Shown in pieces: positions 14,549-16,103 of a DNA stretch of 64,000 nucleotides. Source of the stretch: a virus. The position numbers and the translations under genes are program-made. Position 1 is the first letter of the stretch. Each line of letters begins with the position of its first letter. The stretch covers positions 1-64,000 of IMG/VR virus record IMGVR_UViG_3300042509_001467, one strand, 5' to 3'. The notes below the pieces were generated by a model. That model worked only from the letters and a program-made list of their open reading frames with translations. It searched no databases and was not told the origin of the DNA.

Positions 14549-16036
14549 TCAAATGTCCACCTGTGGGGGTGGGTTGGTTAAATCTGCTATGGCTTGGAGG
14601 ATGGGGTAGACCTGTTGAGGGCAGACGGCGTTACCTAGGGCTTTCAGTCGATTTCTAGCCACTCGTCTGGAAAGCCCATCATCCTGGAGACAAACAACGG
14701 GTTTAACGTCCCACGTTCTCCAGTCTCCGCCTTGTACTGGTGCATATCCGTTGGCAACTGCCCCTCTCGTCCCTGACCTTTCCAATCCCTTGCTTTTGGT
14801 GTTCCGAGCATCATCGTCCTGGCTAGTCCCACCGTCCCGCTGGCTCCCGATGGGGTTGTCTTGCGGATGTTCCCCGACGCTTTCACGCTGTACTGATCGT
14901 TCTCCCCGAAGATCGCTCCCGTTGTCCCGTCGCTGGCTGTCGGGGTTGGTAGCAAGCACTCCCGAGCAATCACCGTCTCTAGGTTTGGAAAGTGGTTGGG
15001 GTTCGGATTCAATCCTGCTGACATTGCCGAGTTCGCCCTCGGCGTAGGCAACGATGAAGACTCGGTTCCGTCTATGCACCGCTCCAACATCGGAAGCTCC
15101 GTACATAGTCCATCCCACGCGATACCCGATTTGCTCCAGATCATTGAGTATCCTTCCAAAGAATCGTCCAGATTCAGAGCTAAACAGTCCTGGAACGTTT
15201 TCTCCCAAGAAGAATCGGGGAGTCGCCTCGCTGAGTATTCGGACGACCTCACTCCAGAGATCACGCTCGTCACCAGACGCCTTGCGTGATCCCGCAAGGC
15301 TGTGGGGCTGGCACGGCTCACGGGAAGCCCGCGCTGACCAAATCTATCTTGGTCGGGCTGGCTTCCGCTTGTGGCACCTCCTGAACCTTGCTTAAATAAG
15401 TCTCTCTGTGAATCTCGTGATGGCATTTTTGGCATACCCATATTACATCTAGCGGTTTGTCATAGTCGTAGTGGTGACCTTGTATTGCGGTTCGTCCGTC
15501 CTTAAACGGCTTTGGCTTTTGTTGGCATCGTTGGCAAGTGTCAGGTCTAACAAGGTCGCCCTTAATTAAAGCCTTCTCCATCTTGTTCTGCGCGGCGTCC
15601 TTTGCTTCTGAGCCACCTCGATAGAAAACGTTATCTTCTCCGTACCTTATCCGTGGCTCAAACTGAGTACCGCGTAACTTCAATATCTGGTGCATTGCTT
15701 GCCTGGTGATTCCGTACTCTTTGGCTACCGCGTCAATGGACTTTAGTTCTGCATATCTAGCCGGGGCGTTGTCATACTTTGGATTCATTTTCATATCTTC
15801 GTATTCCTCCCATCTATTATGCCATATATTGGCAAGGTGAAGCACCGTGCCATCAAATGTTGTAACGTCATCATGTATCGGTACGCCTGGAAAGTTCTTT
15901 GCTAAGACGCGCTGACAGTATTCATCGCGCTCTACAAGCTGGATCGTTGTAAATCCCGCCCAGTAAGCTGCTAAATCAATACCTCCAACTAAATGCCTGA
16001 GAATAAACTTAGGTGCGTTAAAGTTTTCTCAGGCAT
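14549..16036 (-). CDS. C5 DNA cytosine methyltransferase alpha chain with in-frame HNH insertion, interrupted by 5-nt (15987-15991) and 7-nt (15314-15320) stop-containing inserts
   Basis: Joining 16036-15992, 15986-15321 and 15313-14549 gives 491 aa with FSGI|GG (motif I), GFP|CQ (IV), ENV (VI), HRRNRVF (VIII) and LGNAV (X); GGAGGT RBS at 16045-16050; intact paralog at 53254..53982. Confidence 0.85.
14644..15321 (-). CDS. C5 methyltransferase beta chain, encoded in an alternative frame inside alpha (M.EcoHK31I-type)
   Basis: LPTPTASD repeats and LNPLFVSRMMGFPDEW (motif IX-like); frame open to 15441; a GTG at 15321 overlaps the TGA at 15318-15320. Confidence 0.75.
   Translation of the reverse strand: MSRASPTALRDHARRLVTSVISGVRSSEYSARRLPDSSWEKTFQDCLALNLDDSLEGYSMIWSKSGIAWDGLCTELPMLERCIDGTESSSLPTPRANSAMSAGLNPNPNHFPNLETVIARECLLPTPTASDGTTGAIFGENDQYSVKASGNIRKTTPSGASGTVGLARTMMLGTPKARDWKGQGREGQLPTDMHQYKAETGERGTLNPLFVSRMMGFPDEWLEID
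15318..15794 (-). mobile_element. HTH + HNH-type (His-Me finger) homing endonuclease inserted in the methyltransferase
   Basis: HTH SIDAVAKEYGITRQAMHQIL; CQRC...GHHYDYDKPLDVIWVCQKCHHEIH; own GGAGG RBS (15806-15810) before ATG 15794; absent from the paralog. Confidence 0.8.
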
Positions 16037-16103
16037 TGGCAATCACCTCCTTTTGAATTTGAAGCCCGTTAAATCCTCGTAAATCTGCGGTGCTGAATTG
16101 CAT
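16029..16103 (-). CDS. 24-aa leader ORF (MQFSTADLRGFNGLQIQKEVIANA) overlapping the methyltransferase start
   Basis: First 12 residues identical to 53979..54194; its stop lies in the hairpin covering the MTase ATG. Confidence 0.5.
   Translation of the reverse strand: MQFSTADLRGFNGLQIQKEVIANA

Follow-up and report, generated by a model that had tools for sequence, protein, structure and literature searches.

An in-frame HNH endonuclease cassette and two short stop-containing gaps in a nested C5 methylase gene of a lake-water virus: possible sites of translational bypassing

We analysed the first 64,000 nucleotides of the virus record IMGVR_UViG_3300042509_001467 in IMG/VR, hereafter the window, and focused on a C5-methyltransferase (methylase) gene on its minus strand (16036..14549). 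The gene is of the nested alpha/beta type, a layout already known from M.EcoHK31I. It does not form a single uninterrupted methylase open reading frame (ORF): a TAG follows FSGI, a TGA follows GFP, and the frame changes after each, leaving the methylase motifs spread over three frame segments parted by a 5-nt and a 7-nt gap. In addition, a helix-turn-helix (HTH) and HNH endonuclease segment is inserted in frame between motifs III and IV. For each gap, phage methylase genes hold a recurrent family of counterparts, in which a hairpin, a stop codon and a short gap occur together. The features of the locus and of its paralog in the same record are as follows (SD, Shine-Dalgarno sequence).

16029..16103, minus strand: upstream ORF of 24 amino acids, MQFSTADLRGFNGLQIQKEVIANA, with its TGA (16031-16029) inside the 5' arm of hairpin 1
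15992..16050, minus strand: alpha start, with the SD GGAGG at 16050-16046, ATG at 16036 and a 15-codon leader, MPEKTLTHLSLFSGI
15992..16037, minus strand: hairpin 1, 12 bp, AAUGCCUGAGAA (16037-16026) paired with UUCUCAGGCAUU (16003-15992)
15987..15991, minus strand: 5-nt gap TAGTT in motif I, with the stop TAG at 15991-15989
15849..15986, minus strand: alpha N-terminal part, the rest of motif I with motifs II and III (GGIDLAAYW...DDVTTFDG), PF00145 positions 10-56
15791..15874, minus strand: 27-codon stub MMTLQHLMA..., the native beta start ATGATG, overlapping the DD of motif III
15351..15848, minus strand: in-frame insert of about 165 codons, a linker with the SD GGAGG (15810-15806) followed by the HTH-HNH segment
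15318..15794, minus strand: HNH ORF proper, 158 amino acids, from ATG 15794 to TGA 15320-15318
15323..15366, minus strand: hairpin 2, GGAAGCC (15366-15360) paired with GGCUUCC (15329-15323), with an inner 7-bp stem GACCAAG/UUUGGUC
15314..15320, minus strand: 7-nt gap TGAGCCG in motif IV, between the Pro codon CCG (15323-15321) and the catalytic Cys codon TGC (15313-15311)
14549..15313, minus strand: alpha C-terminal part, 254 codons and stop, PF00145 1e-28, phrog_363 4e-44
14644..15321, minus strand: beta chain in the +1 frame, 225 codons from GTG 15321, with LPTP repeats and motif IX LNPLFVSRMMGFPDEW, phrog_1008 6.5e-19
53254..53982, minus strand: intact paralogous short methylase of the same record, with a nested +1 ORF at 53834..53349

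PF00145 matches both methylase halves, and motifs I, IV, VI, VIII and X can be read in order. The leader MPEKTLTHLSLFSGI comprises beta-strand 1 and the first half of motif I and ends with AUU (15994-15992), the putative take-off codon, and the alpha N-terminal part that follows reads in the -1 frame relative to it. We used the paralog (53982..53254) as the uninterrupted reference for motif I and for the loop between motifs III and IV; it reads THLSLFSGIGGIDLAAHW...DDVTTFNGEPFLGRVTLLSGGSPCQ. Omission of TAGTT from the interrupted gene restores LFSGI-GGIDLAA, matching this intact paralog. At the second break, the final 10 codons of the HNH ORF (KIDLVSAGFP) form the first half of methylase motif IV, and the 7-nt gap holds the HNH stop TGA, the overlap with the beta-frame GTG (GTGA) and a second CCG (15316-15314) directly before TGC; the take-off and landing codons at this gap, CCG and CCG, match exactly. 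The alpha C-terminal part then continues with CQPHS (motif IV), ENV (VI), RRNRVFIVAY (VIII), a low-complexity linker and RLKALGNAVCPQQV (X). No ATG, GTG or TTG stands ahead of the motifs of either methylase piece, that with motifs I-III or that from the Cys codon; in the latter frame the first such codon is TTG 15208, with none before motif VI, as is also the case in the relatives described below. The 24-residue upstream ORF is a shortened counterpart of the 71-residue ORF that precedes the paralogous methylase.

Much of this layout had been recognised in a preliminary description of the stretch. Its placement of about 165 codons of HTH-HNH in frame between motif III (DVTTFDG, ending at 15849) and motif IV holds, on the minus strand. 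We likewise found that the HNH ORF has a GGAGG and an ATG (15794) of its own and ends at the UGA of the gap, that the beta frame contains the GUG of the GUGA overlap, and that the 24-residue upstream ORF (16103..16029) stops inside the hairpin over the alpha AUG, all as described there. We add that the beta homology begins at this GUG and that the upstream ORF ends in the 5' arm of the hairpin, which has 12 bp and a z of -4.2. The same description had dismissed an intein and a group I intron, and our searches gave the same answer. The insert begins with TVLHL... and the ORF ends with ...SAGFP and a stop, with neither a Cys/Ser start nor a His-Asn end and with no Hint match in Pfam, and cmscan of positions 13500-17500 on both strands (E<=1) returned 0 matches to group I introns or any other Rfam family.

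We then examined the Pro-Cys (PC) break in related genes. The DNA of relatives was fetched with an HNH alignment as the query, from 12 viral contigs and 6 bacterial genome assemblies, two of which were near-duplicates; a scan of viral contigs with the single HNH protein gave no match, but the alignment-based scans did. Among the matches listed from a metagenome scan there were only distant relatives. With near-duplicates merged, we obtained 18 PC-site loci, namely the window and 17 further loci, one of the bacterial ones being from a prophage of the isolate Muriventricola aceti H5_61 (L100, NZ_JAOQKF010000002.1, about 346.2-347.0 kb), where the site reads CCT TGA CCC TGC; five more HNH-bearing loci of the same kind bring the distinct further loci to 22. 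All 18 loci show GGN TTY CCN, a stop codon, a few bases and TGY CAR, with the stop directly after CCN in 16 and one codon later in the other 2. The gaps measure 6 nt (8 loci), 7 nt (5), 9 nt (2), 10 nt (2) and 12 nt (1), and all three stop codons are used. The triplet before the Cys codon encodes Pro in 12 of the 18 loci; four others have Ser there, and Thr and Leu occur once each, the non-Pro triplets being mostly one base off. In-frame and +1 gaps thus both occur within one homologous family, which fits a frame-independent mechanism. From the codons on either side, only leaving the gap out would give GFP-CQ, with its invariant Pro-Cys, in every related locus.

The methylase parts on both sides of the break are maintained in these loci. 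Wherever the contig extends far enough, which is so in 14 loci, the frame from the Cys codon is intact, with 111-336 codons that include ENV and QxRxR, and motif X lies in this frame in 13 of the 14, the remaining one (L017) having motif X in the beta frame. Motifs I-III run on into HNH in the same frame at each of the loci, and the HNH proteins have diverged to about 40% identity. The methylase backbones are of several kinds:

Nested alpha/beta: the window (WIN), L018-L020 and L023
Single frame, with LPTP repeats and motif IX in line: L016 and L030
Canonical Dcm-like: L026
Alpha with motifs I-VIII and beta with motifs IX-X: L017

Furthermore, a 6-nt stop gap between GFP and CQ, together with the hairpin, is kept in 9 methylase genes with both halves intact and with no HNH motif in the fetched locus, as judged by a crude motif search. 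The gap at the PC site therefore appears to outlive the HNH gene. Two further relatives deserve mention as separate observations. L021 (IMGVR_UViG_3300033489_000010, about 2570-2575) has, besides GFP TAA TCA TGC, an extra in-frame TAG in the alpha N-terminal part (..LAASWV*GDDLEIVSFCE..), which may be a third kind of stop insert or may reflect stop-codon reassignment in that phage. L009 (IMGVR_UViG_3300047649_000008, about 3160-3210) has a one-base frameshift at GG/FPCQ that joins alpha motifs I-III to the beta frame in a 231-residue ORF; mutation, an error of sequencing or some other kind of recoding could lie behind it.

The motif-I break also recurs. The best DNA relative, L016, has AUU UGACC GGC GGG after a 12-codon leader, MPLRALSLFSGI; its AUG lies within a hairpin, in which a compensatory change distinguishes L016 from the window. 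A pattern scan of IMG/VR with TTCTCNGGCATT, TRR, NN and GGNGG gave 37 hits, and 16 distinct loci passed a stricter filter. At least 16 distinct loci (the window and 15 others) thus show AUU, a stop codon and 2 nt before GGN GGN, under a hairpin holding the start codon. The gaps are TGACC, TAGTT, TGACT, TAGTC, TGATC, TAACC, TAGCC, TAAGC and TGAGC, with the stop directly after the take-off codon in all loci. Most of these loci have an intact downstream ORF with PCQ and ENV, and HNH is present in three only. A genuine beta-strand 1 and one half of motif I can still be read in the leaders of at least 16 loci (KLTHFSLFSGI, VLDLFSGI, THGSLFSGI and others), which is sensible only if the leader joins the enzyme. 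One class of hits, ..QFSGI TAATG GGGGF.., was rejected as false positives (IMG/VR loci L127-L129, L132, L137, L145, L154, L155, L158 and L159), being an ordinary stop/start overlap of an unrelated conserved gene pair.

Each gap lies directly behind a conserved hairpin. We used per-locus folds and tables of pairing partners; column-wise consensus folding was unhelpful, the 5' arms being at differing offsets. In the window, hairpin 1 encloses the AUG and ends at the take-off codon AUU, with the above z of -4.2, and it is absent in the paralog (z +0.8). Hairpins at motif I are seen in 13-16 of the 16 loci, with a mean z of -4.0, versus +0.2 for 18 methylase genes whose motif I is intact (p 6e-7), and the Ser codon's wobble base and the base paired with it change together (U:A 5, A:U 4, G:C 2, C:G 1, U:G 1). 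As for hairpin 2 of the window, none of 200 shuffles folds as well; its 3' arm consists of the Gly-Phe-Pro codons and reaches as far as the first base of CCG, the take-off Pro codon. A GAAnCC that lies upstream is the partner of GGN-UUC-C (from GFP) in 17 of 17 related loci, and the third base of the Gly codon, the sole freely variable position, is paired as G:C in 10, C:G in 5, U:A in 1 and U:G in 1. The mean z of the PC-site hairpins is -2.6, versus +0.2 for the same 60 nt of 11 HNH-less methylase genes (Mann-Whitney p 1.7e-4). The loop of hairpin 2 lies 24 nt upstream of the take-off codon, and the tetraloop of the 5' stem-loop in phage T4 lies 26 nt from the take-off site (bioRxiv 10.1101/2022.08.31.505936; 10.1101/2024.12.09.627546).

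The inserted endonuclease was identified by several matches. The HNH ORF matches phrog_2340 (1.3e-19) and phrog_8446 (HNH endonuclease), its residues 1-157 align with free-standing endonucleases of Enterococcus phages, and the HNH core motifs CQRC ... GHHYDYDKP ... CQKCHHEIH are present, while the Pfam HNH models remained below threshold on the insert. A phmmer search with the 158-residue protein against 1.8 billion representatives found 11,096 relatives, and among the best matches are many proteins of 220-293 residues in which methylase motifs I-III are followed by HNH and by a tail ..(I/V)D(L/V)xxGG(F/Y/P)P, which stops exactly at the Pro preceding the catalytic Cys. The closest protein of this kind, P0051 (66% identity), has an intact motif I. 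A conserved ATG preceded by GGAGG- or AGGAG-like bases opens the HNH module inside the in-frame linker in 15 of the 17 further loci. In one protein of 467 residues, P0089, an HNH module ending in ..VDLIVGGFP continues in frame and without a stop into a beta-type chain that is complete (LPTP repeats, MMGAPSGWT); the gap there, by back-calculation, would be about 26 nt and free of stop codons.

The beta frame is conserved in its own right. The +1 ORF (15459..14647), with LPTP repeats and LNPLFVSRMMGFPDEW (motif IX), has homologues of its own by tblastn (1e-18) and matches 50 database proteins and phrog_1008 'DNA methyltransferase' (6.5e-19). All nested-type relatives that were fetched have a conserved, open +1 frame (L001, L002, L007-L015), and it is open in the paralog too (53834..53349). 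The native beta ATG of relatives lies 16-26 codons before PCQ, and P0001 begins with MMLQPSME. In the window, the HNH insert severs this native start, left as the 27-codon stub, from the beta body; the next sensibly placed start is the GTG of GTGA (15321-15319), exactly where the beta homology (SRASPTAL...) begins. A stop/start overlap for beta at the junction recurs in one relative only (L022, TAATG), the others having a beta start elsewhere or no beta. Possibly, then, beta is restarted at the overlapping GUG, and this is the least supported of the three products proposed below. Two ideas about the origin of these frames were dropped: a double frameshift as the source of the two methylase frames, in favour of the known nested alpha/beta layout, and an out-of-register join with a G-E-P-C-Q allele (deduced from the beta chain of P0001) as the source of the 7 nt, since the canonical GGT TTC CCG TGC encodes the same beta residues, V-S-R-A-S.

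The interrupted allele is real, and it coexists with one that lacks the HNH segment. At least part of the stretch is contained in 24 lake-water metagenome runs, with no RNA run listed for the locus; four of the 24 were aligned to it, with the likely source run left out. The contigs X3 (14400-15766), X2 (15235-16331), X7 (15287-16098) and X11 (15562-16098) show 0 differences and 0 gaps. Since these four independent lake-water runs match with 0 differences across both gaps, an assembly error is ruled out. In X7 and X11, a related allele joins 15316 to 15850, without the HNH segment (15317-15849) and without TGAG, and this HNH-less allele is about 10 times deeper (170-180 versus 18.5 in X7, 42.7 versus 4 in X11). 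The 15 listed differences between the alleles in 15035-15316 alter 3 alpha residues and 10 beta residues. The alpha frame thus appears to carry the mark of purifying selection, with no decay, although this mark is not assignable to the branch after the invasion. The presence or absence of HNH is polymorphic at one site, which is empty in the lake relative, L011, P0004 and the paralog, and such a polymorphism, as it appears from these alleles, is behaviour typical of a homing endonuclease. A blastn search of 14400-16300 against phage records gave no match, and the exact junction string GTGAGCCGTGCCAGCCCCAC was found in no other IMG/VR contig.

Several features of the surroundings were also noted. 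The interrupted methylase has a mosaic make-up: at the 5' end and over the last 93 nt it is similar to the paralog, at 72-95% nucleotide identity (14514-14606, 15850-16022 and 16043-16333 versus 53219-53311, 53816-53983 and 54133-54424), the central region with motifs IV-VIII and beta is similar to a different allele family (P0001-P0004, L011), and HNH sits at the left edge of the swapped segment. On the minus strand at 17651-18139, 1.5 kb upstream of the methylase, lies a 162-residue ORF whose N-terminal part resembles HNH and which also has a DNA-binding motif of the AP2 type (YRGV..GKF..YLG.Y.T.EEAA.AYD); it has the look of another free-standing gene of the homing-endonuclease kind. The whole IMG/VR record measures 80.7 kb, and its ends repeat at 92% identity (window 1-1008 versus record 79660-80667). 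It contains two paralogous modules at about 10.5-17.6 kb and 49.3-56 kb (10487-17627 versus 49257-55976), with protein identities of 44-100%. The record may represent one genome of roughly 79.7 kb assembled across strain variants, or a join of two related phages.

We propose that an HNH homing-endonuclease cassette invaded a nested two-chain C5 methylase, in frame in the loop between motifs III and IV, and that ribosomes skip the stop-containing gaps, in a miniature of the T4 mobA/gene 60 arrangement; we give this reading an even chance of being correct. The alpha chain would comprise motifs I-VIII plus X, and beta the recognition part and motif IX. The gap in motif IV would destroy the target of the endonuclease itself and confer immunity, and the same gap ends the HNH ORF. 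A fraction of the ribosomes would pause at the stop and slide 5 nt at motif I (AUU to GUU) and 7 nt at motif IV (CCG to CCG), aided by re-zipping of the hairpin behind the ribosome. Both slides together would yield a full alpha chain of 491 residues with HNH as an internal domain, and the predicted junction peptides are LSLFSGIGGIDLAAYWAGF and IDLVSAGFPCQPHSLAGSR (LFSGI-GGIDL and SAGFP-CQPHS). Ribosomes that terminate, whether they come from the HNH ATG or from upstream, would release free HNH and may restart at the GUG for beta.

Several points count against this proposal. Two skips in one gene multiply any inefficiency, and unstimulated short hops have been described as low-level events (bioRxiv 10.1101/2022.08.31.505936; 10.1101/2024.12.09.627546). 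The landing triplet at motif I is near-cognate here (GUU versus AUU) and mostly non-cognate in the relatives (ACC, ACU, AGC, GCC), a poor match that departs from classical bypassing by re-pairing. In two of the four runs the allele with HNH is in the minority, and the record has a second, intact methylase, so the interrupted one may be dispensable. In addition, L018 and L019 carry identical HNH modules beside diverged downstream exons, which indicates recent homing, and the intact downstream ORFs could partly reflect recent invasion rather than selection. The rarer HNH-bearing allele, the second methylase and the recent homing would suit a dead host gene, in which the HNH cassette and its stop scars spread by homing regardless of the methylase: alpha is not made, the open frames reflect a recent invasion together with selection on the beta frame or none at all, and the hairpins serve expression of the endonuclease through message stability or translation control. 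The need for two low-efficiency events and the want of a canonical start in either alpha piece point the same way. We nevertheless consider a dead gene unlikely, though far from negligible. It explains neither gap as damage, and the full downstream ORF in 14 of 14 complete loci persists despite the divergence of HNH to about 40% identity; the HNH-less genes retain the gap and the hairpin with both halves intact, motifs I-III are fused in frame to HNH at every locus, at least 16 loci have leaders that keep a genuine beta-strand 1 with one half of motif I, and the hairpin arms co-vary.

The remaining explanations keep the methylase alive by other means. If the gaps were decoded, those of 6, 9 and 12 nt would be passed by stop read-through and those of 7 and 10 nt by a +1 frameshift at the stop (CCG UGA G, then GAG CCG UGC), adding 2-4 residues before the Cys, and a +2 shift at motif I would give LFSGI-V-GG. 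Shifty stops are known recoding sites, and the gap lengths at the PC site, being only 0 or +1 modulo 3 with no 8- or 11-nt gaps among the 18 loci, are as decoding would have it and count against skipping. Decoding would, however, require two different mechanisms in one homologous family, would leave Ser, Thr or Leu before the Cys in 6 of the 18 loci and extra residues in a catalytic or glycine-rich loop everywhere, and meets with a CCG that is unable to re-pair at the +1 position (CGU); the use of all three stop codons excludes codon reassignment. We regard decoding as improbable. Removal of the gaps from the mRNA, with the hairpin marking a site of cleavage and re-ligation, as in a mini-intron, would make the mature RNA collinear with the protein, and would account for a conserved hairpin that ends directly at each gap and for the poor match of the landing codons at motif I. 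Yet no known bacterial or phage system excises 5-12 nt from mRNA, no Rfam family was matched, and ribosome pausing, unlike RNA processing, explains why nearly every gap opens with a stop, which makes excision very improbable. Equally remote is a gene in pieces, with separately translated fragments (motifs I-III with HNH, the C-terminal part, and beta) that assemble like artificially or naturally split methyltransferases. Split C5 methyltransferases can assemble (M.EcoHK31I, PMC2836561; PMC3404938), and the HNH ORF ends cleanly at GFP in all loci, as such a scheme would have it; against this, the piece with motifs I-III has no start codon in the window, the Cys frame has none before motif VI here or in the relatives, and a break between Pro and Cys would split the catalytic loop.

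Skipping of both gaps thus remains our preferred reading, and it changes the preliminary description in some respects. That description had made one 7-nt insert govern all three products, which does not hold for alpha, whose synthesis would depend as well on a skip over the separate 5-nt gap of motif I. Its assignment of hopping to the alpha chain is favoured by GFP-CQ, restored only by skipping, and by the co-varying hairpin; its re-initiation of beta at the junction found little echo, recurring only in L022. The notion of a homing endonuclease living inside a host gene without splicing is not new in kind, given the precedent of T4 mobA/gene 60. Its interpretation is therefore partly supported, and this copy could still be a recently invaded, dead gene.

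More generally, and more tentatively, phage methylase genes may host a large family of stop-hops of 5-12 nt, driven mainly by a re-zipping hairpin that ends at the take-off codon and needing little or no landing pairing. HNH endonucleases would use such hops to occupy catalytic motifs without killing the host gene, and in the present gene two hops and a stop/start overlap would give a free endonuclease, an endonuclease-bearing alpha and beta from 1.5 kb. We think this generalisation somewhat more apt to be wrong than right. To our knowledge, programmed translational bypassing in phages is known essentially from T4 gene 60 and its homologues only. A 2022 preprint states that no similar bypassing had been reported in other phages, and the literature that we searched yielded no description of catalytic methylase motifs broken by short stop-gaps beneath a co-varying hairpin, whether an in-frame HNH is present or not. 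If the proposal is true, bypassing would be a common strategy and not a curiosity, and homing endonucleases, already known to use introns and inteins, would have a third means of settling at the codons that are most conserved in a gene. Each site would be minimal (a hairpin, a stop and 5-12 nt), easy to test and suited to dissecting forward slippage. Such methylase genes are now called fragments or pseudogenes, which would leave the methylation capacity and anti-restriction potential of phages under-annotated.

The arrangement can be compared with several known systems. In M.EcoHK31I, beta with motif IX is encoded wholly within the alpha gene in another frame, alpha has motifs I-VIII as well as X, and both chains are needed for methylation (PMC2836561). 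The present gene likewise nests a chain with motif IX in the alpha gene, a likeness of layout, while its beta also carries the LPTP-repeat recognition region and has lost its native start to the HNH insert. Part of the beta N-terminus of M.EcoHK31I is dispensable (PMC2836561), which would permit a shortened, GUG-initiated beta here. Stop hopping in Escherichia coli is a low-level event in which 9 nt specify one amino acid (bioRxiv 10.1101/2022.08.31.505936; 10.1101/2024.12.09.627546). As there, the peptidyl-tRNA would leave the codon before a slow stop and resume a few bases on, in any frame. Unlike those unprogrammed and low-efficiency hops, the sites described here are conserved, lie always in methylase catalytic motifs and have a co-varying hairpin.

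The cassette also resembles inteins and group I introns with homing endonucleases, in which a selfish endonuclease is lodged at the most conserved catalytic codons; it differs in that the insert lies about 10 codons upstream of the gap and has no Hint, intron or ribozyme match. A human-gut phage (L002, MT835926.1 9559-13885, about 272-2347) has a nested alpha/beta methyltransferase with a full intein between GFP and CQ (..GGFP/CFDGDT ... VVHN/CQPFS), and this intein lies at the very codon boundary where the stop gaps are found. The GFP/CQ site thus appears to be the target of selfish elements of three kinds, an intein, an HNH cassette and a bare gap. Another free-standing endonuclease gene inside a conserved enzyme gene, with no splicing element, is reportedly mobE in nrdA of the Aeromonas phage Aeh1, where each half of nrdA is said to have gained its own start and stop and the halves to assemble. 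In contrast to Aeh1, neither methylase half here has a usable start codon.

The closest parallel is T4. There, mobA and the 50-nt gap of gene 60 form one mobile cassette, the gap shields the DNA from MobA, a stop follows the take-off codon, and a 5' stem-loop on the exiting mRNA has been proposed to drive forward movement (bioRxiv 10.1101/2022.08.31.505936; 10.1101/2024.12.09.627546). The present sites differ in that the gaps are of 5-12 nt, not 50 nt, with no room for a take-off/A-site stem-loop or an internal SD, and no conserved nascent peptide beyond the methylase motif was found among the related loci. The hairpin ends at the take-off codon here and lies 9 nt before it in T4; the endonuclease is fused in frame to the upstream host half here, whereas in T4 the host is split into two genes; and the host is a non-essential methylase here and a topoisomerase in T4. 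The HNH protein is also unrelated in sequence as far as tested, and the bypass in the present gene is a predicted one. In both systems a free-standing HNH endonuclease sits inside a host gene as neither intron nor intein, and the endonuclease gene is accompanied on its moves by a separate gap, non-coding, within the host ORF. In both, too, the stop stands directly after the take-off codon (AUU UAG and CCG UGA here). The take-off and landing codons are the same at the 7-nt gap here, as in T4, but only near-cognate at the 5-nt gap (AUU and GUU). The logic of the cassette, in which the gap gives immunity to the endonuclease and ribosomes skip the gap, is already known from T4, and we propose that it applies here as well.

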